Assembly (NCBI RefSeq): GCF_030028105.1
Contig: NC_092401.1
Location: 26,712,399 to 26,776,398 of the forward strand
Direction of reading: 5' to 3'
DNA: 64,000 bases
Origin: Mobula birostris
Taxonomy: Eukaryota
A model generated the notes under the pieces. The model was not told the DNA's origin and ran no database searches. It saw only the letters and a list, made by a program, of their open reading frames with translations. Shown here piece by piece: positions 1 through 62,322 of the stretch (within the stretch, counting starts at the first letter, position 1; the number at the start of each line of letters is the position of its first letter). The position numbers and the translations under genes were made by a program.

Positions 1-199
1 CCTCTCCTCCACCTCCGAGACCCCAAGTTTCTAGTTTCCCCTTCCCGCCATGTCCCCTTTCTTCTCCATTTCACTCTTCCCTCTCTCTCCCCACTTCCTT
101 CCTCCCCCCCTCCTCTGCCTCTCCCTCCACTCACACAGTACCTCCCCCCTCACACACGCACCCTCTTCCCCTCGCCTTGTACCTCCCCTGCCCTGCCCT

Positions 200-560
200 C
201 CCCGAGTCCGTACCCTCATCTCCCGGATGGCCTCCCAGCCGGCGCGGACACCGCCGATCGGCCGGTACTCGCTGCGCTGCGGTAGCAGCAGCTGGTCCAG
301 GACGCTCAGGCTGCCCCGCCGGTAGCGCAGTGCCTGCAGGCTCATGGCCGCTGACCTGACCGGAGCCGAAGAAACTGCGAGCGGGAGGAGGAGCCGGATC
401 ACTCGAGTCGAGTGTGACGTGTTTCTGTGGGTGCCGGGGTCATGGGATTCCCAGAGTGGTTTCAGCAAATTGTTGATGTGGATTTCGGTCCATGTCGGTG
501 CAAACGACGGAGGCAGAACAAACGCTAAGGATCCGCAGACTGAGTAGAGGGAGTTGGGTC
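200..560. promoter_or_regulatory. CpG-rich promoter/first-exon region of MRI1
   Basis: High CpG density compared with the CpG-depleted flanks; overlaps the MRI1 start codon. Confidence 0.6.
214..345 (-). CDS. MRI1: Methylthioribose-1-phosphate isomerase, coding exon 1 (gene continues beyond the left edge)
   Basis: Translates as [44 protein letters not shown], matching the MRI1 N-terminus (L..LDQ.LLP...Y...W.AIR.M.VRGAPAI). 44 codons followed by a GTACGG donor at 213. CpG-rich context. Confidence 0.93.
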
Positions 561-7328: not shown

Positions 7329-8162
7329 CTATCCAGGGGGAGATACAGATAGAGAAGTTAAAACAAAAGTCAATTTATAAAATGTAATGGTTAACAAGCT
7401 CAGATTAATTTATTTATCATCTGTCCATCAAACCATATAGTGAAATGCATCTTGCATTAATAAACAACACAAGCTAGGGGTGCGCTGGAGAGAGCCCACG
7501 AGAGTAGCCACACATTTGGATGCTGGCTGGTTCAAAGTAAACTCATTATTATACACATATATACGCACGCACACGCATACACCTTCTCCAGAACAGGACT
7601 CTGGGCCTTCAGTTGGGCTTTGGCTTCCAGACCTCCTGTCAACCTTCAAGCTTCGATTTTCAGGATTGGCTCCACAAATCAGTACATTTTTCCTTGCCCT
7701 CCCTTCTTTGGCCTCTTTTCAGTCTTTCTGTCTAGGCTCATTGATATTCCACTTGCATTTATGTAGCACCAAAGGATACCCACCACTCTGTAAATAAACT
7801 TGCCCTGTAAATCACCGTGGAACTTACCCCCTCATCTTAAGTTGTATGGCTGTTACTGTGAAACATTTTGACCCTGAGGAAAGGAAACCCTCTGCCTCTC
7901 ATAAACTTATGAACTTCACATCTCCCCTCAGCCTCTACCACTCAAAAGAGAACAGCTGTAGTTTGTCTAGCCTCTTCTACACCCTCTCCAAAGCCTATAC
8001 ATCTTCTCTGTAACATGATGACCAGGATTGAATGCCGTACACTAGGTGAGCAGGAGTGGGATTCTAACAGATGACTTTCTGACTGAGATTTGGATCTCAC
8101 CCGCTGCTGACCCACCTAACCTCGTTCCAGCTGGTGCAAGGAATAAAACAGCTCTCACTCAC

Positions 8163-8321
8163 GGGCAAGCATTTGATGGTCCACACCACTGTGTTATTTT
8201 CGGGAACCCACTTGGCGCTCCCCACGCTGGTCTTGAACTTGGGCGTGTCAGCATCACTTGGCACAGGGATAATGATTTCCACATTGTTGGCGACAGACTG
8301 CTTCTTGAACTGACTTTTGGC
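8163..8321 (-). CDS. AP1M2: AP1M2 exon 9 (AKSQFKKQSVANNVEIIIPVPSDADTPKFKTSVGSAKWVPENNTVVWTIKCLP)
   Basis: Acceptor AACAG; donor GTGAGT; 159 nt. Confidence 0.96.
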
Positions 8322-9269
8322 CTGTTGGGAGGAAAAAATATTAACATTTGCCCTCCTACCACAGACCTCCTCCTTTTTGTACCATTTTTAAAGCTATATT
8401 TCTTATAACTTACAGTAGTTTTATGTCCTGCATAAAGCAAAAAAAATCACCTCAAATGTCAGTGATAATAAACCTGATTCTGAACCATCCTGCCTGTCCT
8501 GAACTTCATGAGCCTTACAGTGACTGCTTCAATATCTCACTGAAGCGACCTCATCATGATCAGCCTGGAAAGTGTGGAGCTTCTGACTTTTCCAGTACAT
8601 AGTATCATTCAGTATAGAAACAGGCCCTCAGTCCAAATGGTCCATGCCAACCAAGATCCAAGCTAGTCCCATTTGGCCCATATCCTCTAAACATTTCCAA
8701 TCCAATGTACCGGTTCCAATGTCTTTTAAAAGTTGTGCATTAATCCACATACATACCTCACTTTGTGTAAAAAGTTGCCCCTCGGTTTCTATTAAAACTC
8801 TCCCCCCAAACCTTAAACACATACCACCTAGTTCTTGATTCCCCACCCCTGGGAAGAAGACTGTGTCGGATCCTGATACTTCAGCAATCCAAAGGATTTT
8901 TGGAAGTCAAGAATGAGTCAAAAAAAAACTTACTGCTAAGCAATTTTATTAAGTGCTACAAGAACAAAGAACAAGCAAAAGAGGAGCTGAGAGAATGAAG
9001 AAAAGACAAAGGACAGAGCAGCCGTAGTTGTCTCATACTCAGAGTAGAGATAACACAATTGCAGTGATAACAATTAACCTACAAAATAGCCTGAGTAAAG
9101 TGCCGTGACACCTGCTACTGAAAACTACAAAAATACAGAAGCAACTGTACTGTAATCACCAATTACATGTATGTCAGCAATTATGTAATAAATACAACTA
9201 CGCATTGGAAAGTTCAAATTGGGGATGGTGGCTGATGCTGAATGATAGTGGCATCTAAGAAGCTGTTAG

Positions 9270-10187
9270 ACACACGGATATGCAGGGAATGGAGAGAGCA
9301 GATCACACGGATATGCAGGGAATGGAGGGAGCAGATCACACGGATATGCAGGGAATGGAGGGAGCAGATCACACGGATATGCACGGAATGGAGGGAGCAG
9401 ATCACACGGAATGGAGGGAGCAGATCACACGGATATGCACGGAATGGAGAGAGCAGATCACACGGATACGCAGGGAACGGAGGGAGCAGATCGCACAGAT
9501 ATGCAGGGAATGGAGGGAGCAGATTACAAGGATATGCAGGGAATGGAGGGAGAAGATTACAAGGATATGCAGGGAATGGAGGGAGAAGATCACATGGATA
9601 TGTAGGGAATGGAGGGAGCACATCACAAGGATATGGAGGGAGCAAATTACAAGGATATGGAGGGAGAAGATCACGTGGATATGGAGGGAGCAGATCACAT
9701 GGATATGCACAGAATGGAGGGAGCAGATCACACGGATATGCAGGGAATGGAGGGAGCAGATCACACGGATATACACGGAATGGAGAGAGCAGATCACACA
9801 GATATGCAGGGAATGGAGGGAGCAGATCATAAGGATACGCAGGGAATGGAGAGAGCAGATCGCACAGATATGCACGGAATGGAGGGAGCAGCTCACACGG
9901 ATATGCAGGGAATGAAGGGAACAGATCACACAGATATGCAGGGAACGAAGGGAGCAGATCACACGGACATGGAGGGAGAAGATCACAAGGATATGCAGGG
10001 AAAGGAGGGATGTCAATCACATGGATATGGAGGGAGTAGATCACATGGATATAGGTAGTAGATCACATGGATATGGAGGGAATGGGGGTAGTAGATCACA
10101 CGTATGCAGGGAATGGAGGGAGTAGGTGACACGGATATACAGAGGATGGAGGGAGCAGATCACACAGATATACAGGGAATGGAGGGA
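9270..10187. repeat. 33 bp minisatellite (CACACGGATATGCAGGGAATGGAGGGAGCAGAT), roughly 30 units including 24 bp and 21 bp variants
   Basis: Direct tandem repetition, embedded in a CR1 3' end. Confidence 0.95.
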
Positions 10188-10945: not shown

Positions 10946-12031
10946 CTAAAATCAAACACAAAGTCCTTCAGTAAGTTTCTTCTCTACAGTGTCTGAATGA
11001 CTGTTTAGATTCTGGGAAGGCCGGCAGGATTGTCGGGTTATCCCAAGTGGAGCTGCGAACACCTCTTTCATGATCTTGGGAGACTCAGTCTCAATCCATC
11101 ACACCACCATGTGATGTCCATTGCCTTGTTAACATCTCTGGTGAAGATGGTGCTGAACATCACAGCTTCTCTCCTTTATAAGTGCACAGTGGAGAGTATC
11201 CTGACTGGTTGCATTATGATCTGGCATGGGAACACCAATGTCCATGGAAGGATCTACTGAAAGTGGTGGGCACAGCCCAGTCCATCACCAAGGACGCCCC
11301 ACAAACCACCATCTAGGCCGTGCTATTTTCCCACCTCACCCATTGAGCATGAGGTGCGGGAGCCTTAGATCCAAACCACCAGGTTCAGGAACAGTTATTA
11401 CCCATCAACCACTGGGCTCTTGAACCACAGTGGATAACTTCACTCACCTCAATGTTAAACTAAATCTACACACTACAGACTCAGAATTCATGTTCTCAGT
11501 ATTTTTTATTTAGTTATTGACAATAACTTATTTGCATGATTTGTCATCTTTTCCACATTGGTTGTTTGTCAGCCTTTATTTATGTTTACTTTTTCATAAA
11601 TTCCAAATATGTTTATTTTCCTGTAAATGCCTGCAAGAAAAAGCATCTCTGCGTGGTAAATGGCAACATGTGTGTTTTCTGATAATAAATTTACTTTTTG
11701 ACTTTGATTTTAAGCTGTGGTCTCCAACAAGGTTGTGACTCAGACATGGCTTTTTTTTTAATTAAGGTTTGTACAGATGGTTTTGGAGACAGCAACGTGG
11801 GGCGTTAGTGGTCAGGCCTCCACTCCATGTTCAAAAATCAACGACATGGATGTGGGTGGGTGGGACAGTGGAATGGGGCTGGTTTTGTTGTTTTGTTGCT
11901 TGCTGTGTTCTGTGTTGTTCTGTTGAGCATTTTGGGTACGCTACATTGGCGCCATCGTGTGTGTTAGTTGATGACGTAAGCGAATCTGAATCAGAATTTC
12001 CTTCTTCTGTGGACATTACGTTGAGAAGAAT

Positions 12032-12506
12032 GAACAGCTTCCATCAGACTGTGAAGAGGTGAGGGTCACTCAGTCTGGAGAGTGAACAGCTTCCATCGGA
12101 CTGTGAAGAGGAGTGGAGAGTCACTCAGTCTGGAGAATGAACAGCTTCCATCAGACTGTGAAGGAATGAGAGTCACTCGGTCTGGAGAATGAACAGCTTC
12201 CATCAGACTGTGAAGGGGTGAGGGTCACTCAGTCTGGAGAGTGAACAGCTTCCATCAGACTGTGAAGGGGTGTGAGGGCCACTCGGTCTGGAGAATGAAC
12301 AGCTTCCATCAGACTGTGAAGGGGTGAGAGTCACTCAGTCTGGAGAATGAACAGCTTCCATCAGACTGTGAAGGAGTGAGAGTCACTCGGTCTGGAGAGT
12401 GAACAGCTTCCGTCAGACTGTGAAGGGGTGTGAGGGCCACTCGGTCTGGAGAATGAACAGCTTCCATCAGACTGTGAAGGGGTGAGAGTCACTCGGTCTG
12501 GAGAGT
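12032..12506. repeat. 52-55 bp minisatellite, 9 units
   Basis: GAACAGCTTCCATCAGACTGTGAAGGGGTGAGAGTCACTCAGTCTGGAGAAT starting at 12032, 12084, 12139, 12191, 12243, 12297, 12349, 12401 and 12455. Confidence 0.95.
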
Positions 12507-13599
12507 GTGGCTATGTAACGATTGGGCGCCATTTTCTGTGAAGATCAGCTCCTTATTTTTTAAGATGAGAGTGAATCCTATGGGCAACAGGGTTTCCATG
12601 GACTAAAGACTTGCTGGAGAAGAAAGTCAAATCGCAACTCAACCATGACCCCTCTTGACCTCACGATCTGCCTCATTATGACCTTGCACATTACTGTCTA
12701 CCTGCACTGCACCTTCTCTGTAGCTGTTACACCCTGTTCTAGACTCTGTTGTTGTTTTATTTTACCTTTTCTATCTCAATGCACTGCTGTAATGAATTAA
12801 TTTGTTTGAGCAGTATGCACAGCTAGCTTTTCACTGTACCTCGGTGAATGACATTAATAAACCAATTCCAATCTTTCTCTGTAACTATAACACACAATTT
12901 TTATTACTTTCCTTTTCTATTGCAACCTCTGGCAGCACACCCTAGGTACCCATTACTCCGTGTAAGTAAAACCTACCCGACACACCTTCCTCACCACCAG
13001 GCCACGCCATCTTCACACAGCTCAAATCAGGCAGGAGGTACAGCAACCTGAAGTCCCACACCACCAGGTTCAAGAACAGCCTCTTCCCTTCAACCATTCA
13101 GTTCTGAACCAACAGGCAAAACTCTAATAACTAGAGATTAGCAACTCTATGACCACTTTGATCATTTTGCACCAAAATCTACTTTTATTTTGTTCTAATT
13201 GTGTTCTTTCTTGTAATAATTGTGTATAATTTACGTTCCATTGATACCTTTAGCTTGTGACAGCTACTAATATGGTGCTTATGTGATGCTGCTGTAAACA
13301 AGGTTTTCATTGCACCTTGTACTTGTGCATACAGCAGCAAACATGACCGACTTTTAATGCATCCTGATATCTGCCCTTCAATCTTGGCTGACAGCAGGAG
13401 ACTACAGTTGGGCACAAAGTCACTCCATTGACCCAAGGACATCTGGGTCTTTAACCTGGAAGAGTTCATGAAAACAAAACAGGGTAAAGTCCTCCCAGAT
13501 TTTAGATTTGATTGCTAATCATTGATATTGGAGGAGGCTAAAAGGTTGGCACAACATCATGGGCCAGTAGTGTTCTAAATTCTAAGTTCCTTTACTCAC

Positions 13600-21069: not shown

Positions 21070-21929
21070 CTGTCCAGGGAACAGGGAGTGCTCAGGCCTG
21101 GCTCGTGCTCGGTCAGAACAAAACCCAGGAAGCAGAGGGCAGCACCTCAGTCAGAGGCAGGCTCGTCATGAGTTCAAAGCAGGTACCTCATCGGTCTCCA
21201 TGGGCATATGCCTTTGCCTCCCCCTCCAACATCTAAAACTCACCTCTTTCTTGCCATACATTCCCACAAAACCCTGCCTCTCTCACTCCCCCCCATGTAC
21301 CCTCCCAATATCCTCCTTCCTTCTTCCCACACACCTCAAAAACCCACTCATTCTTCCTACATTCCTCAGAAATTCACCCTCACCCCAAACGGTTCTACAG
21401 AGCGATGACGAGCACTCTGGACTCTGAATCCAGTGGTCAGAGTTCATATCTCGGTGCAACCTGTTTGGGCTCCATAGTAACGGAGCGGTTAGCTCACACT
21501 ATTATACCTCGGGGTGTCAGAGTTCAGAGTTCAATCTCGACATCCTCTGTAAAGAGCTTGTAGGCCCTCCCTGTGGAATGCATGGGGTTTCTCCCACAGT
21601 CCTAAGATGTTTAGTAGTTTAATTGGTCGTTGTAAATTGTCCTGTGATTAGGCTCGGGTTAGACTGGGGGATGGTGGGCAGTGTGGCTTGAAGGGCTGGA
21701 AGGGGCCTATTCCATGCTGTATCTGGGGCAATAAGTAAATAAATACCCCAGAAACACACACTCCCTCCCCACAATCTCCAGAAATCCTCTCCTCATCCCC
21801 ACACACCCCAGAAACCCACTTTCTCCCTCTCCCCACATACATTGGGAACCTACTCTCTCCCCCACGCACGCCCCAGAAACCTACTCTCTCGCTCTCTCCA
21901 CACACCTCATAAACCCACTCTTTCCTCCG

Positions 21930-22820: not shown

Positions 22821-22858
22821 CAGTCCTGACGAAGGGTTCTGGCCCGAAACATTGACTG
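22821..22858 (+). ncRNA. Minimal type I hammerhead ribozyme motif (Penelope-associated), core intact
   Basis: CAGTC CTGACGA A GGG TTCTGG CCC GAAAC ATT GACTG: stem I CAGTC/GACTG, CUGANGA, stem II, GAAA and an NUH triplet. Confidence 0.75.
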
Positions 22859-35274: not shown

Positions 35275-35910
35275 TGCAGGAACTCCCATTGGCTACCCAT
35301 TTCAATTCCATTCATATTCCCTCACCTGCACATCTGCCCATGGCCTCCTCTACAGCCACGATGAGGCCAGATATATGTTGGAAGAGCAAACCCTCAATAT
35401 TGTCCCGGGAGTCTGAAACCAAATGGCAGCACATCGATTTTCCAACATCCATCAACCACTCCCATTTGTCCTACTCCCCTCACCCTTTGTTTTCCCTCAC
35501 TCTGAAGGCCTTCTTACCCTTTCTCTTTCATTCTGCCAGCCTCATAACTTGCCCATCTCCTCCCTCTGGTTCCCCACCTCCTTTGCTTTATCCATTGCCT
35601 ACTGTCTTCTCTTAACAGATTCCTTCTTCAGCCCTTTCCCTATTCCATCTGTCACCTCTTAGCTTCTCTCATAATACCCCCTACCCCACCTACGTTTTCC
35701 ATCACCTGAATTCACCTATCACCTGCCAGGTTGTGTTCCTTCTTCTCCAACATTATCCTGGTTCTTGTCATCTTCCTTTCCCATCCTGATGATGTGCCTT
35801 GGCCTGAACCATCGACTGTTCACTTGCCTCCATAGAAGCTGCCCGATCTGTTGAGATCCTCCAGTGTTTTATGTGGGTTCAAAACTTCAGATCTGCAGAA
35901 TCTCATGTCT
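35275..35910 (+). mobile_element. Penelope-like element 3' remnant (GIY-YIG endonuclease C-terminus, pyrimidine-rich UTR, hammerhead-bearing end)
   Basis: Frameshifted LPLATHFNS...HGLLYSHDEARYMLEEQTL...IDF, then a CT-rich tract and a degenerate hammerhead at 35781-35818. Confidence 0.75.
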
Positions 35911-36630: not shown

Positions 36631-36724
36631 AATCTAACTCCTTCAATACTTGTAGCAATTTACAGTGGAAATCTAAAAGCCAGAAGAAAAAAGAAAATCA
36701 AACCTTTGCAGGAATACAACATAT

Positions 36725-37185
36725 TCTGCAGATGCTGAAATCTTGAGCATCTCACACAGAATGCTGGAGAAACGCAGATCAGGAAGCATCTATGGAGGTG
36801 AATAAATGATCAGCAATTCAGGCTGAGACCCTTCATCATTGATTTCTGCCCACTCCCACTCCTCTCTCTTTTTCAATCCCCATTCTGGCTCCCCTCTTAC
36901 CCCTTCTCTTCATCTCTCACTGGTGCTCCCCTCCTTCCCTTTCTCTGATGGTCCTCTATCAAATTCCTTCCTCTTTAGCCCTTTACTTATTCGAAGCACT
37001 TATCATCTCCCAGCTTCTCACTTCACCCACCAGTTCGTACTTCTTCCCCTTTCCTCTCCCATCCTGATGAAGGGTCTCAGCCCAAAACGTCTGTTTATCC
37101 CTCAGAAGTTGCCTGACCTGTTGAGCTCCTTCAACAGTTTGTTTGTGTAGCTCTGGGTGGGTTTCCGACATCTGCACAATCTCAT
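36725..37185 (+). mobile_element. Penelope-like fragment with an inverted terminal copy
   Basis: Inverted copy of the element end (36725-36838) followed by the CT-rich UTR and a sense hammerhead at 37061-37092. Confidence 0.65.
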
Positions 37186-39237: not shown

Positions 39238-39436
39238 CATACTCAAAAAATTCTGGCGAACGCAGCAGGTCAGGTAGCATCTATAGGAAGAGGTACAGTC
39301 GACATTTCGGGCCGGGACGGGTCCCGACCGTACCTCTTCCTATAGATGCTGCCTGGCCCGCTGAGTTCACCAGCATTTTTGTGTGTGTGTTGCTTGAATT
39401 TCCAGCATCTGCACATTTCCTCGTGTCTGTGTTTTT
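39238..39436. mobile_element. Palindromic Penelope-derived insertion with a 14 bp TSD
   Basis: Two inverted arms; flanked by AAGTATCTTGGTGA (39224-39237) and AAGTACCTTGGTGA (39437-39450). Confidence 0.8.
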
Positions 39437-41908: not shown

Positions 41909-42102
41909 AACACACACACACACACACAAAATGCTGATGAACACAGCAGGCCAGGCAGCATCTATCTTTCTTTCAGTTAGTCTCGGCCCAAAATGTCGAC
42001 TGTACCTCTTCCTATAGATGCTGCCTGGCCTGCTGCGTTCACCAGCATTTTGTGTGGGTGTTGCTTGAACTTCCAGCAACTGCAGATTTCCTCACGTCTG
42101 CG
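41909..42102. mobile_element. Palindromic Penelope-derived insertion with a 13 bp TSD
   Basis: Inverted arms; perfect direct repeat TGTTAATACAAGT at 41896-41908 and 42103-42115. Confidence 0.82.
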
Positions 42103-52360: not shown

Positions 52361-52462
52361 CCTCCAGATCTCAGAGATTGGAAAACAGTCTTGATGTGTT
52401 TACTTGGCTCAGAAGCCTTTCAGGAACAGTCAGAGCCACTCCAAAGCAAGAATCTACAGATC

Positions 52463-52565
52463 ATGATTAGTGCCAACTGCCTGTGGAAACTGGGACTGTA
52501 CCCCTTGTTGTTGAGTGCAGCTGCTGCTGTCCTGAAGCCACGACCCTCCAACCTGGATCTCAAAA
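52463..52565 (+). CDS. EPOR: EPOR exon 1, signal peptide (MISANCLWKLGLYPLLLSAAAAVLKPRPSNLDLK)
   Basis: Hydrophobic leader ending ...K plus a phase-1 donor GTGAGT; joins in frame to exon 2. Confidence 0.8.
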
Positions 52566-55500
52566 GTGAGTTCATTACTGTGCATACGAGGTCTTGATAA
52601 TTACAAATCATTCACCTCTATTTTAGCAGATGAAATTTCAAGCACCAATATGTCAATTTTACTAAATCTAAGTATATATATAAAACCATTGGCAGTATGA
52701 GTTAGTTTAAAGGAAAATGTAATTTTTCCCCACTTTTAAGTATACTCCGTTTTCCTTTGTGTGAATGACATTGCCTGTGTGATACAGTGAGCTTGCAGGT
52801 GAGAGGAAAGCTATTTGCGAGTCCTGATGAAGGCTCAGCCCGGAACATTGACTGTTTATTCCCCTCTATAGATGCTACCTGACCTGCAGAGTTCCTCCAG
52901 TATTTCGTGTGCAAGTTTCCAACATCTGTAGAATCTCTTGTGTTTATTCTTGTTCATTAGTTGTTTTTCTCAATGAGTTTACAACATTAATCTTTCAATC
53001 TTGTGTGTGATCCAAAGTGTTGTTTCTGCTCTATAGTTACATTGTTGAGTATTTTAAATTTGCAGTCATTATTTCTATAGGGAGGACTACATCTTTTGAA
53101 TTTACACTGTTAACGGGTCTATCGTTGGAAGTCATAAAACTGAATAAAATCTTGTGTAGTTTTTACAGAATCCAACCAAAAGACCACTTGGCATAGGAGC
53201 AGAATTAGGCCATTCAGCCCTTTGAGTCTGTTCCATTATTCAATCATGGCTGACTTATAAGATCCTTCACATATTCTTTAACAAGTCAACATGTTTTGTA
53301 TTAATGTATTGTCAATGTGATTTCAATTGACATATTGAGGTGTGTGGTAATGTAGTAGTTACCTAACTAGCAGCCAGAACTATGGCATATTGATTCAGGG
53401 GTGTAAGTTTGGATCCAACCAGGACAGCTATGGGATTTAAATTTGGGTGATTACATAAACCCAGAATTAAAATAAGATGAATTAGTCTCAGTAAAACTAT
53501 GAGACTGTTGGATTTTCATTAAAAAACTGTCTGGTTTTCAAGAGGAGAGATGTGTTATCCTTACCCATTCTGGTCCATGTGTGACCAGTGAGGTTGACCC
53601 TTAACTGAAAATTATCTGACATCCACCATGTCAACATATTTTAAGAAATATGTTTTAGAAGTTATTTTGAGGAATTGTTTTAGTTAGTTTAAAGATTTAA
53701 ACAATTTGTTGGATGATTCAGTCTTGGGTTTTTGTTTAGTTCCCCAATGAATGGAACACAATTGTGTCCTTTGAAATATGATGACAGTTGCATGTAGGGG
53801 TATCTTTCTGTGACCTAGTTGAGGTTCTGACTACAAAGTACCACACGACATTTCAGTCACATGGTAACACACTCACTTCTGAATGTCAGGATCAAAGGTC
53901 CACGCTGGGCCAACAATACAAGGTCAAAGCAGAACAACCAAATACTAGGTTAACTTCTTGAGAGAAAGGCTGCTGGATGATATTCCAGGCAACTGGACAA
54001 TATTCCAATAAAATTATTAATCGAGTGCTTAATCCTTTATTCCTTGGAGTAGGAGGCTGAGGGGGTGACCTTATAGATCAAGAGGAATATAAAAGGGGTG
54101 AATGTGCACAATCTTTTTTCCCAGGGAAGGGAACTAAAACTAGAGGGTACAGGTTTAAGGTGAGAAAGAACATCTTCAAAAGGGACTTGAGGGGCAATTT
54201 GTTCACGCAGAGGGTGGTGTGTTTACAGAACAAGTTGCCAGTGGAAATGCTTGAAGAAGTGCATTTGGATTTGGATTTGGGTAAGTGTGTGGATAGGAGA
54301 GGTTTAGAAGGATATGGGTCAAAGGCAGGCAACTGGTTCCAGCTTGGCGGGCACTATGACAGGCATGGGCAAGTTGAGCCAAAGGCCCGTTTCCGTGCTG
54401 TAGGTTACCCATTCTAGCTGCTGGACCTGGAGACGGGAATATCACAAACTGAAGTGGAAGTTAGCCCTAGAAAATTATTGACTGGTTCTCAGTCATATCC
54501 AACAATGAAAGTGGAACCTGTGTGGTAGAGTTTTTAAAGTGGAAAAGCTATTATACTGGGATAGTTCCATTCTCTTGACCTTGGAAGTCCAGGTCCACTG
54601 GTACAAGTAATTGCCACAACTGGAGTCTTCCTTGCTTGTGGTGGATGACCACAACTTCTTCTACGCTTTGTCATGCCCTTCACTCTCCATGCAGAGCCAC
54701 CTTCCCAGCTGTTGGATCTTACTGTTGGTCTCATTCACCCTGTCTGTTGGAGCTGACTTTGCCTGCTAGGACAGGCATGTCCCTATCTCTCTTATGGGTC
54801 TCTCCTCACCTGTCAAAACATTGTACCAGGGTGTTTTAAATTCAAAGTCCAAGCAGCATACATGTATGTCACCATATATTACAATGATATTCATTTTCTT
54901 GTAGAAATTCACACGAAATTAATGAAATACAATAGAATTTATGAAAAACTATGAAGACTGACAAATAACCAAGTGCAAAAGAAAACAAATCATACAAATA
55001 ATAAAACAAATACATAAATAATACTGAGAACATTGAGTTGTAGAGTTCTTGAGAGCGAGTCTGTAGATTGTAGTCAGATCAGAGTTGAGGTGAGTGAAGT
55101 TATCCATGCCAGTTCAAGAGGCTGATGGTTGTAGAGTAATAACTATATTTCCAGATCCCCACCACCCTTGCTTTGACAGCACAGCAACAACCTGCATTTA
55201 CATTGTGCCTGAGTAAACCATAAACCTTAACCACAAGAGATTTTGCAGTTGCTGGGCATCCAGAGTAACACACACACACACAAAATACTGGAGAAACTCA
55301 GCCGCTCAGCCAGTGTCTGTGGAGAGGAATAAACAGTGGAGATTTTGGGCTGAGATCCTTCTTAAAACTTAAATGCTTATTGCCACATTTAACAACACAA
55401 CGTTTAACTGTCATCCTAAAGGAACATAAACCTAATTGCATTTATTCAACTGTTTTACAATTAAGTTCTGGGGAACTCAGATGCAAAATCTACAGGACCG

Positions 55501-58125: not shown

Positions 58126-58264
58126 TCCTCCAGGTTAACACGGTTGGGTCGGAGAAGTTGAAATGCTTCACTCAAACACTGGAGGATTTCACCTGTGTCT
58201 GGGATGAAAGGAACAACACAAGCAACAGCAGCCAGTACAGATTCTTCTACCAGTACCAATACCA
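58126..58264 (+). CDS. EPOR: EPOR exon 2 (LQVNTVGSEKLKCFTQTLEDFTCVWDERNNTSNSSQYRFFYQYQY)
   Basis: C-F-x4-EDF-x-C-x-W motif of the class I cytokine receptor D1 domain; acceptor CACTAG; donor GTAAGT. Confidence 0.9.
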
Positions 58265-58602
58265 GTAAGTTGTCCGTTTCTCAGCTACAGTGCCCAACAC
58301 AGGTTCTGGATCATTGATCCAGGGACATGAGTTTAATTCCCATCACAGCAGCAGGGGCATCTTCTCAAGTCTTTATTAATTCATGTTTGAGGTACACACT
58401 CATTGGGGACCATGTCTCTTTCAGAAAATGTGCAGAAAAGTTTTATTACTTAGGAATCCAATTTTTTTCTATGATGATAATATAGACAAAAGTCATTCCA
58501 GGATATTTCTTTGTCCAAGACACATACAAGTCCTGTGGCACCAGTAGACTGCATCCATAATAATAGGACATCTGTAGAGTTGCAAAATCCTGACCTTATT
58601 CA

Positions 58603-58963
58603 AGCAACACACACACAAAATGCTGGCGGAATTCAGCAGGCCAGGCAGCATCTTTGGAAAAGAGTACAGTCAACATTTTGGGGTGAGACCCTTCTTGGCC
58701 CAAAACGTCAAAGTTCTGCTGAAGGGTCTCGCCTGAAACTCTGAGTCCTGCTGAAGGGCCTCGGCCTCAAATTTCGAGTCCTGCTGAATGGACTCGGCCT
58801 GAAACATCGAGAGTCCTGCTGAAGGGACTCGGCCTGAAATGTCGAGAGCCCTGCTGAAGGGTCTAAGCCCAAAACGTCAACTGTACTCTTTTCCACGGAT
58901 GTTGTCTGGCCTGCATTTTGTGTGTGTTGCTTGGATTTCCAGCATCTGCTGTTTTTCTCTTGT
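58603..58963. mobile_element. Palindromic Penelope-derived insertion with a 15 bp TSD and an internal hammerhead array
   Basis: Inverted arms; TCCTGACCTTATTCA (58588-58602) and TCCTGACATTATTCA (58964-58978). Confidence 0.82.
58712..58883 (+). repeat. Tandem array of five 32-35 bp hammerhead-core units (CTGCTGA variant)
   Basis: CTGCTGA at 58716, 58748, 58781, 58816 and 58851, each followed by a stem II-like segment and (G/C/A)AAA. Confidence 0.85.
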
Positions 58964-59619
58964 TCCTGACATTATTCACCATTTTCCTGGAGTGAGATTA
59001 CCCACCTTACCTGTAATGGCTAAAGTGTAACTTCAGACTCAACAGTACTGTTAATTAGCTCAAGGGTAGTTAGGATGGGCGATAAATGCTGGAACTGTCA
59101 GTGATGTCCACGTCCCGAGAATCAGAATCGGAACCAGGCTTCTTATCACTGACGTATGTTGTGTGAAATTTATCGTTTCGTGGCATCTGTACAATGCCCT
59201 ACATATAATAAATTATACTTTATAATAACATGAACGTGTGAAATAATTGGTGCAAAAAGAAAGCAAAAACTGTTGGGTGGTGTTCATGGGTTCATTGTCC
59301 GTTCAGTAATCTGTTAGCAGAGGGAAAGAAGCTGTTTCTAAATCATTGAGCATGTGTGTTCAGGCTCCTGTACCTCCTCTCTGATAGTAGTCAGGAGATG
59401 GGGGCACGTCCTGGGTGGTGAGGATCCTTAAAAATCTTTATGTTACATCTCCATCTAAATGTGCAATGTGCAACTTACTGTAATTTGTTAATAAATAGCT
59501 TGTATAGCAGGGCAGTCAATATAACATAGAAATACAATTGTATAAGTGTGAATTAATCAGTCTAATGGCCTGGTGGAAGGAGCTGTCCCGGAGCCTGTTG
59601 GTCCCGGCTTTTATGCTGC

Positions 59620-60185
59620 CATGTTGTTGTTCGTCCATCGTCATCGTCGATGAAGACCTCGACACCATTATGATGGTGTCGAGACTAGCGCGTGATTTGG
59701 ATTTAAGTGAGGGAGAGTTGAGCAGCGTCAGCCTCACTCTCTCTTCCCAATTCCCATCTGGATCCAGTGGCAAGACAGAGTTGAGACGGCTGGAGATGGG
59801 ACTAGGCGCAGTGGATGACCAGGACGTCTTCTGTGTCTTGTCCTGCTCTACACGTTCCACGACGCTTGCAGAGACCGCCTTCTTGACCGTTGGACCTTCC
59901 ATTGGTCTCATCCGCTCAATCTGCCGGAGTCTGTCTTCACATGCTGGGATAGACAACTCCCTATCTCACCGAGGGTTTGAGACCCGACGGCTACCCTTAC
60001 TTGGCTTAGCCGGCTTATCGAAGCTGTTGCCCGGGGTGTGGCCGCTGTCGCATGCAAACAGCTACGGGGAGCCACAGGTGAGAGCTGAGTGCCAGGTGGG
60101 GACCAAAGGTGGACTAACCACCTTGAAAAGGAAGCGACATTTTCCCCCACCAGAGATGCTACCCCTCCCTGACACCCCAGCTAGA
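59620..60185 (-). mobile_element. RTE-clade non-autonomous element
   Basis: CpG-rich and well preserved; 5' part CTCTCACCTGTGGCTCC...GCATGCGACAGCGGCCACACC resembles RTE 5' UTRs; ends in (CAA)n. Confidence 0.55.
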
Positions 60186-60844
60186 ACAGTTTGTGGTTGG
60201 GGTGACTTCAGAGATGTTGATACCAAAGAACCTGAAACTGCTCACCATTTCAACTGCTGCTCCTTGATGAGGACTGGTAAAAAATTAATTAAAAATTGCC
60301 CTTGAACATATTGTGGAAATGCTAAGCCTAAAGAACTCACTATGGTCAATTTTAATCCTTCCCTTTTGGCAGAACTGGATGGATGAGAATTTAAGCATTT
60401 TAAAATCAATCTGGTTTTCTTCTTTAGAAATTTAGAGACAATTGGGCCCATTGTCTATGCTTTATTGCCTCTGTCTTCAGGTTTCAGCTGCTCTCCGTCA
60501 TGTTGATAGAGGTGTACAAATGATAAGAGGCATAGATAGAGTGGACAGCCAGAGACTTTTTCCCAGGGGCAAAGAGCTAATACGAGGGGTCAAAACTTTA
60601 ATGTGATTGAAGGGAAGCATAGAGGGCAATGTCAGAGGTAGGTTTTTATGCAGAGAATGGTGGCTGCATGGAATGCCCGTTAGGGGTGGTGGTAGAGGCA
60701 GATACAATAGGGGCATTTGAAAAACTCTTAGGCATCTGGAGTGAAAGAAAAATGGATGGCTATGTATGAGGGAAGGTTAGATTGTTCATGGAGTACGTTA
60801 AAAGATCAGCACAATATCGTGCCTTAATGTTGTACATTATGTGA

Positions 60845-61298
60845 TCGAGAATCTCCGGAGAGAAAGCCCCAAAATCCCCAGCTTTGCCTGCTGTTGGCGA
60901 CCGAGGCTGAGGTCGAATCGTTCGAATAGAGCTGGTGCTCAGTACTCGGTGTCGGAGGGCTGATCGGAGCTCGAAGATTTCGGACAGCTCAGAGTCAGAC
61001 TGTGGTCGGGCATGGCAGGGAGAGTGTTCTTCTTTCTCCCGTCTGCGTGAGATGTGGGACTTTCGAGAAACTTTGAACTTTTTTACTGTGTCATGGACTG
61101 TTCTTCATCAGGTTATGGTGTTGTTGAACTGTTGTAACTAAATGTTATAATTATGTGGTTTTAGTTTTTCAGTCTTGGTCTGTCCTGTGTTTCAGTGATA
61201 TCACACCAGAGGAATATTGTATCATTCCTTAATGCATGCATTACCAAATGACAATAAAAGAGGACTGCGTGTCCTCATAATCTAATCTAATCTAATCT
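60845..61298 (+). mobile_element. Second copy of the same element family, with an (AATCT)n tail
   Basis: Clear similarity to the reverse complement of 48390-48860; inserted in a CR1 3' tail. Confidence 0.7.
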
Positions 61299-61330
61299 AT
61301 GTTTTATGTTCAATGCTCTTTCTCCTCCAG

Positions 61331-61509
61331 GGATGACGAGAGAAAGAAAGAATGTCAATTATCCATGGAAGAGATTGCCAACAACACAACACGTCACATC
61401 TGTTCCCTTCCAATGATGGAGGTCTCCTTGTTTACCCCACTGGACATTGAGGTGTTGCTAAACAGAAGTGTTGTCATGAGCAGAAAGGACATGTATATTA
61501 ACCACATGG
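61331..61509 (+). CDS. EPOR: EPOR exon 3 (DDERKKECQLSMEE...HICSLPMMEVSLFTPLDIEV...INHM)
   Basis: Second cysteine pair and the CSLP...FxPL motif typical of EPOR; acceptor CTCCAG; donor GTGAGT. Confidence 0.9.
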
Positions 61510-62322
61510 GTGAGTGCATTTGCAGAGTCAGAACCAGCTTTACTATTGCCAACTTAGATGATGTGAAATGTGTTGTTTTGCATCAGCGGTACAGTATAAA
61601 GAATAAAATTGCTGTAAGTTACAAGAATAAATAATGCAGAAAACCTGAGCTGGTGTTCACGGGTTCCTGGACTTGTCAGAGATTTGATGGCAGAGATAGA
61701 GAAATTGTTCCTAAAACATTGACTGTGTGTTATCAGGTTCCTGCACCCGCTCCTTGATAGTCGTAATGAGAAGAGAGCATGTCCTGGACAAGGAGGGTCC
61801 TGAATAGGTGCTCGGTGGGGAGGGTTGAATAGGTGCTCGGTGGGGAGGGTTGTGCCAGTGATGGAGATGGAGACCACATCCATCTGCAGCCTCATGCAAT
61901 CCTGTGCATTGGTGCCTCCATACCAGACAGTGGTGCAACAAGTCTAAGGCCTACTCTAAGCTTTAGTTAATTTAACCTTATCTAAGATCAATCTAACTCT
62001 TCCCCCCTATATACCCTCCATTTTTCTATTTATCATCCATGTGCCTATCTAAGGGTTTCCTGAATATTCCTAATGTATCTGCCTCTACCAGGGCGAATTC
62101 TGTGCCTCTGTTTATACAGGCCAGTCGTGCATGTCCTCCTGCACACCACTGAGGAGATCTCTTCACTGTCAGAGGTGGTGCATTGGACTAGGGTCCTGCC
62201 TGTTCTCTTAGATTGGTGTAAAAGACCCCCTTTCTGAAGAAGAACAGGACACTCCTGATATTTGTTGAACGATCAATATCACAGACAGGAAGTTCTGATC
62301 ATTGGCTTTCTTCTTCCCTCAG

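Follow-up and report, generated by a model that had tools for sequence, protein, structure and literature searches.

The closest described relatives of the locus reported here are the minimal type I hammerheads of metazoan Penelope-like pseudo-LTRs (Cervera and De la Pena 2014, PMC4209133). According to the available portion of that paper (the sources cited in this report are drawn on in part throughout), these motifs have a short stem I, a bulged base between positions 9 and 10.1, no loop III and a palindromic 15.2-16.2, and they occur as many dispersed truncated copies; our locus resembles them in all of these respects. The array at its centre differs in consisting of the core alone, at 32-35 bp, with C at position 6 (C6) throughout and mostly without stem I, whereas the tandems in that paper are whole elements placed ~3 kb apart. 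Penelope-like insertions, as presented in the accessible text of Craig et al. (2021, PMC8557442), are similar to ours in having an inverted arm, a one-sided 30-bp tail, a target duplication of variable length and a hammerhead near the 3' end. Unlike them, the insertion described here has no coding region, and its centre is a minisatellite of hammerhead cores.

The non-LTR retrozymes of animals (Cervera and De la Pena 2020, PMC7229834; Li et al., bioRxiv 10.64898/2026.07.22.740005) share with the array head-to-tail type I motifs, Penelope ancestry, a small number of units and an often intronic position (44% are intronic in X. tropicalis according to the part of bioRxiv 10.64898/2026.07.22.740005 at hand). 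Their monomers are 51-972 bp long and carry complete motifs, whereas the units here are 32-35 bp long, none of the five is complete and the whole array lies inside an inverted repeat. A retrozyme is defined in the available text by at least two consecutive monomers of 51-972 bp with a complete type I hammerhead, and the array falls outside this definition. The phage Bcep176 A6C hammerhead (Perreault 2011, PMC3088659; Naghdi 2020, PMC7151607) has the same CUGCUGA in place of CUGAUGA, but in the portions available that RNA is otherwise complete and its cleavage has been shown, whereas the array units carry further core and stem defects. Amniote intronic hammerheads such as that of RECK, as covered in the accessible part of a review (PMC6155905), are like the array in being intronic, in sense orientation and of retroelement-like origin; theirs are single, canonical and highly conserved, whereas the array appears to vary in unit number between two related species and shows no excess conservation in a comparison of low power. 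Titles and abstract openings in the literature gave no description of core-only hammerhead arrays of 30-35 bp or of this ray family; many subscription papers were outside reach, and absence from print is not established.

We consider that the array is very probably a decayed and inert hammerhead minisatellite within a Penelope-type insertion, likely produced by local slippage and with copies that are predicted to be non-functional. In all likelihood the insertion is an ordinary relic rather than a hidden gene switch.

Position and layout of the insertion

The window (the whole stretch of ray DNA that was analysed, 64,000 nucleotides) contains exons of the erythropoietin receptor gene (EPOR). 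Of the 12 matches to the exon at 62322, all 12 carry the name erythropoietin receptor or receptor-like, and the best two are ray proteins with 100% identity to this exon. Comparison of four exon pieces with solved structures placed the thrombopoietin receptor first for two, EPOR first for one and was uninformative for the remaining one; the thrombopoietin receptor was ruled out as the host gene by the 12 EPOR-named matches to the exon at 62322. The gene model is as follows.

52394-52564, 58126-58264, 61331-61508, 62322 and 63585, + strand: EPOR exons, mapped in order
58126-58264, + strand: EPOR coding exon 2, a mapped exon
58265-61330, + strand: EPOR intron 2, between mapped exons

This exon map places the insertion in EPOR intron 2 on the same strand as the gene, with its start 339 bp into the intron. 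A sense location in EPOR intron 2 had been proposed in the initial annotation and is borne out by the protein matches together with the exon map on the + strand. Transcription of the array within EPOR pre-mRNA would be expected from the gene structure. The sense intronic placement is itself unremarkable: nine of the 16 other hammerhead-like cores in the window are on the + strand, and one of them lies in sense in EPOR intron 1. The parts of the insertion are listed below in order.

58588-58602, + strand: left target-site duplication, 15 bp, one mismatch against the right copy
58603-58694, - strand: left arm, an inverted copy of the 3' end of the element
58695-58711, + strand: half unit, comprising the 3' half of stem II, AAAA in place of GAAA and a GTC site
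58712-58743, + strand: unit 1, 32 bp; C6, GAAA kept, G-U at 10.1-11.1, position 16.2 missing
58744-58776, + strand: unit 2, 33 bp; C6, G12 changed to C
58777-58811, + strand: unit 3, 35 bp; C6, GAAA kept, U-U at 10.1-11.1
58812-58846, + strand: unit 4, 35 bp; C6, GAAA kept, 3-bp stem II, 2-bp stem I
58847-58883, + strand: unit 5; C6, G12 changed to A, continuing into the right arm
58856-58933, + strand: right arm, the 3' end of the family
58934-58963, + strand: 30-bp tail, on the right side only, which fits the one-sided tail of 30-40 bp of Penelope-like insertions (PMC8557442, available part)
58964-58978, + strand: right target-site duplication, 15 bp, one mismatch against the left copy

A 15-bp direct-repeat match of this quality arose by chance at 30 of 2000 random window positions. 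The inverted arms pair over 59 nt (58636-58694 with 58856-58914, 85% complementary), with outer pieces extending to ~58603 and 58933. By comparison with the left arm, the right arm is missing 14 bp near 58914, and paralogous contigs carry extra sequence at 58913. Read as its reverse complement, the left arm starts at hammerhead position G8 and is thus silent on position 6. The CTGCTGA boxes (n = 5) start at 58716, 58748, 58781, 58816 and 58851, giving spacings of 32, 33, 35 and 35 bp, and TRF describes the array with a period of 35, 4.7 copies and a score of 188. The half unit and unit 5 have 14 identical nucleotides in common. With five boxes, inverted arms and a 15-bp duplication, the locus agrees with the earlier description of a five-unit tandem array inside a palindrome flanked by a target-site duplication, the coordinates of which were exact; what that description had not recognised is that the palindrome and its duplication belong to a repeat family of very high copy number.

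Repeat family and probable Penelope affiliation

The arms of the insertion have matches at many places in the window, and the summed contig depth on the arm is ~3-5 x 10^5 times that of the flank in four of four public runs (with four species labels), a ratio that is not a copy number. The repeat family to which the insertion belongs is very abundant. The 16 other hammerhead-like cores in the window are found on both strands; the core probe gave no matches in three of three simulated windows. None of these 16 cores has a neighbouring core beside it, and the array thus occurs once among 17 family loci. The consensus of the family alignment (16 rows) has CTGATGA, a bulged A, a 4-bp stem II and a 5-bp stem I (CAGTC/GACTG), with a palindromic 15.2-16.2 and no loop III, and the majority form of its second box is AAAA. 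C6 is present in none of the 13 solo window cores with a readable first box (12 have A and one has G); the first box is unreadable in three others, including the two closest relatives.

A bulged base before stem II and a palindromic 15.2-16.2 are traits of the minimal hammerheads (PMC4209133, available part), and an inverted truncated copy with a one-sided tail of 30-40 bp is the layout of Penelope-like insertions in the portion of PMC8557442 at hand. The traits of such insertions that are present here are a minimal hammerhead near the 3' end, an inverted copy on the 5' side, a one-sided tail and a target duplication of variable length (15 bp at this locus, 15 and 14 bp at two sister copies, and none clear at a third that was tested). 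As both the layout and the motif fit, with no protein match, we infer a Penelope origin, and the insertion is likely to be the truncated end of a Penelope-like retrotransposon. Family patterns had no matches in viral contigs, prokaryote genomes or metagenomes; ray DNA is not expected in these collections, so this result is uninformative.

Penelope-like elements have a partner open reading frame for a reverse transcriptase with a C-terminal GIY-YIG endonuclease. A frameshifted stretch at 35275-35445 (+), upstream of the core at 35782, resembles by eye the C-terminus of a Penelope-type GIY-YIG endonuclease; it is followed by a pyrimidine-rich body and then by the hammerhead. None of three pieces of this putative remnant matched Pfam, and searches gave no homologue, off-target matches only and no atlas match. 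The 15 off-target matches to the remnant query fall on residues 2-33, most of which are read in a different frame from the suspected remnant, and these matches were set aside.

Other family copies in the window have structures of their own. The two small sister palindromic insertions at ~39240-39430 and 41910-42100 have target duplications of 14 and 15 bp and centres without a first box. At ~36720-37150 two family ends stand back to back around one body, with cores at 36843 (-) and 37060 (+). The copy at 52820 (+), in sense in EPOR intron 1, has kept CTGATGA and has a 2-bp deletion in stem II. The solo core at 22821-22858 (+) has both boxes, five of five stem I pairs and four of four stem II pairs, with C-A at 15.2-16.2 and U at position 17. 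Judged by its sequence, this solo copy at 22822 has the best-preserved motif of all rows scored and would be a better ribozyme candidate than any array unit.

Core defects of the array units

The units were compared position by position with the hammerhead criteria given in the available part of PMC3088659. In the first box (C3 U4 G5 A6 N7 G8 A9) A6 is found in none of the five units, and the other six positions are intact in all five. The second box (G12 A13 A14 A15) is intact in units 1, 3 and 4 (three of five) and reads CAAA in unit 2 and AAAA in unit 5. The cleavage site (U16 H17) is present in all five, with unit 1 lacking position 16.2. The closing pair 10.1-11.1 is G-C in unit 5 only, G-U in units 1, 2 and 4 and U-U in unit 3, and in the whole element its pairing probability is 0.005 or less. 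Unit 5 is also the only unit that still has the family 3' strand of stem I downstream, with its first base changed.

Two of the points made initially are upheld by this comparison, namely that position 6 is C in every unit (five of five) and that the cores derive from a hammerhead of the minimal, dimer-dependent type. The further statement that each unit corresponds to a ribozyme core template is contradicted, as the full template is matched by none of the five: unit 1 starts with AAGTT and has no 16.2, unit 2 has CAAA, unit 3 has the U-U pair, unit 4 has GAAAT and unit 5 has AAAA. For A6C hammerheads, cleavage is slow in Mg2+ and efficient in Mn2+ (PMC7151607, accessible portion). The suggestion that C6 may damp activity or alter metal dependence stands to the extent that A6C is a described variant, weak in Mg2+ and preferring Mn2+, and by analogy with it the loss of A6 would not on its own be fatal for cleavage. 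If C6 marks a whole ray subfamily, this would be a source of many natural A6C variants. A search of Rfam returned no hammerhead among nine matches up to E 10; it missed the solo family copies too and is hence uninformative.

Stem I, folding and predicted activity

We combined the 5' half of one unit with the cleavage half of any unit, giving 25 pairings (the half unit was left out). Stem I has at most two contiguous pairs in 24 of the 25, and four in the combination of the 5' half of unit 1 with the cleavage half of unit 5. The downstream strand of unit 2 makes four of five stem I pairs around a G-G mismatch. The repeat ends two to four bases past the cleavage site, and the start of the next unit occupies the place of the downstream strand; the period of 33-35 bp has thus cost units 1-4 the downstream strand of stem I. 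This disagrees with the earlier idea that head-to-tail copies are what a dimer needs: a dimer gives stem III only, every site also requires a stem I, and units 1-4 have lost the downstream strand of theirs through the period.

Forcing an open core and stem II within the whole element is predicted to cost 5.4-13.4 kcal/mol per unit (units 1, 3, 4 and 5), since units 1 and 5 are engaged by the left arm and the middle units by one another. All folding energies given here are secondary-structure predictions, which leave out tertiary contacts, proteins and co-transcriptional traps. The fold of the array alone is more stable than those of shuffled sequences (z = -2.5), a result that any repeat with self-complementary halves would give. 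None of the array units is predicted to fold into a working ribozyme or to cut RNA.

The single combination with a longer stem I suggests a different reading, in which the 5' half of unit 1 and the cleavage half of unit 5 form a composite C6 hammerhead, with the middle units as a dispensable loop of stem III, and this would cut EPOR pre-mRNA at a low rate or when Mn2+ is raised. Each of its ten pairs is either standard or G-U, and its stem I is 4 bp long, with U-A at the place of the C-G of the consensus. Cleavage with Mn2+ is described for natural A6C hammerheads (PMC7151607, available part), conserved intronic hammerheads exist in amniotes (PMC6155905, available part), both halves of the composite lie within the part that is retained in related species B and the insertion is common to species E (see below). 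We nevertheless regard a latent module of this kind as very unlikely. Forcing the composite would cost 30 kcal/mol in the whole element and 11.9 kcal/mol without the left arm, its stem III has two contiguous pairs, its 10.1-11.1 pair is G-U and it was picked after the fact as the one favourable pairing among 25. In vitro cleavage is weak even for intact minimal Penelope hammerheads, also as dimers (PMC4209133, accessible text), the available part of PMC11167929 reports no RNA ends at the site of the Anolis element, and the comparison with species B gives no excess conservation. A latent cleaver in the array is unlikely on these models, and there is little to recommend the more specific proposal of a slippage-rebuilt, Mn2+-preferring cleavage site 0.6 kb into EPOR intron 2, the strength of which would depend on how many units there are and on whether the flanking hairpin opens. 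Cleavage at the composite site, if it took place, would make this a metal-tuned cut site in the pre-mRNA of a vertebrate red-cell hormone receptor, produced by repeat slippage.

Origin of the array

The end of stem II reads CCT in units 1-4 and CCC in the consensus (a CpG-type change), and units 3 and 4 have GGAC in common (a transversion), and each of units 1-4 has its own alteration of the CpG at 15.2-16.2. Units 1-4 differ from each other by 3-6 substitutions and from unit 5 by 7-10, so that the range over all units is 3-10. The CpG-type changes that units have in common point to local DNA slippage after insertion. Two further CpG-type changes are common to the half unit and unit 5 and absent from units 1-4; a slippage series running in one direction fails to account for this sharing, for which later copying, conversion or parallel decay could each be responsible. 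The five C6 copies would most simply represent one inherited change and not five. Two larger minisatellites in the window, at 9271-10187 and 12027-12507, have periods of 33 bp and 52 bp and TRF scores of >750; they show that sequences in this stretch often expand locally into tandem arrays.

The array might instead have been written whole at insertion, either by template jumping of the reverse transcriptase or as a copy of a multimeric or circular (retrozyme-like) RNA, and have decayed since then to an equally inert state. Penelope-like elements give complex tandem and inverted insertions (PMC8557442, available part), tandem hammerhead repeats are reported from vertebrates including one cartilaginous fish (bioRxiv 10.64898/2026.07.22.740005, available part), and the 7-10 substitutions between unit 5 and units 1-4 imply that one split is old. 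We judge this origin improbable, however, since units 1-4 have the same CpG-type change, units 3 and 4 have the same transversion and units 1-4 show only 3-6 differences among themselves. The reported monomers are also longer (51-972 bp in the accessible text of the same preprint), a unit of 33-35 bp being too short for both strands of stem I, and a neighbouring core is found at none of the 16 other window cores. The array had initially been called either a relic of multimeric or slippage replication or a latent self-cleaving module; a slippage relic fits the substitutions, and the multimeric origin and the latent module are kept here only as rivals.

Local slippage after insertion, the reading that we prefer, would have proceeded as follows. 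Penelope-like enzymes would have inserted a 5'-truncated 3' end, with its inverted copy and tail, into EPOR intron 2. C6 would already have been in the inserted core or would have been gained once before amplification, and an early duplication, possibly a template jump at insertion, would have split unit 5 from the ancestor of units 1-4. As the common changes suggest, a CpG-type C-to-T change would have come next, followed by slippage or unequal exchange that multiplied a stretch of 33-35 bp, the end of which would lie just past the cleavage site. The copies have since diverged further, and a single contig from a related species is two units shorter. In the pre-mRNA the arms are predicted to form a long hairpin that pairs with units 1 and 5, with units 2-4 pairing mutually, which would make cleavage negligible.

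Read in this way, the array is one of very many Penelope-type ends in the ray genome, with a local stutter, and it matters little. It does show that a minisatellite can arise from a ribozyme core, and that stem I is lost when head-to-tail cores are shorter than the full motif.

Related species and assembly support

A 175-nt contig from related species B (run X5, record 30) has a depth of 5.6, compared with 6.2 and 5.8 in the flanks. It maps to 58642-58741 and then to 58810-58884, spanning the arm-to-array junction, and the skipped 68 bp correspond to units 2 and 3. The check for copy-number variation proposed at the outset, run on contigs, thus gave two units fewer in species B (one contig), and unit number appears to differ between close species, five versus three. 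The three-unit state comes from one short contig of one run, and the flank contig ends at 58638 with no overlap; a second allele in species B or a graph shortcut may be the explanation in place of unit loss. The contig has six differences over 175 positions, compared with 23 over 1105 in the flanks (Fisher p = 0.27, a comparison of low power with one contig), so that the array shows no sign of conservation above its flanks in this species.

A contig from species E (run X15, record 17) has 42 differences over 715 flank positions and reaches 15 bases into the left arm, and the insertion is therefore likely to be older than the species E split. Among the matches listed, no piece lies over the array in species E or in species C (run X12, which also has no cover at 58981-59027), and none spans it in the window's own species. 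The differing letters listed include none in the array, which says nothing about the share of C6 among paralogs. In the best run, which may be that of the source sample, 0.94 of 151 sampled words are present.

Hairpins and tandem repeats are error-prone, own-species pieces across the array are absent among the matches listed and related species B has fewer units, and each of these would be in keeping with a five-unit array that is an artefact of assembly or consensus. That possibility had been raised as a potential refutation, and we attach hardly any probability to it: there are 3-10 substitutions between units, which a collapsed or duplicated read would not show, 0.94 of the sampled words are found in the best run, and the arm-to-array junction with three units is present in a second species.

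Other features of the window

The open frames at 31-558 (-) and 8097-8387 (-) may be exons of MRI1 and of the gene for an AP-1 mu subunit. A tRNA-like match at 21391-21462 (+) scores 28.1 bits against an Rfam gathering score of 29 bits and is possibly the head of a tRNA-derived repeat.
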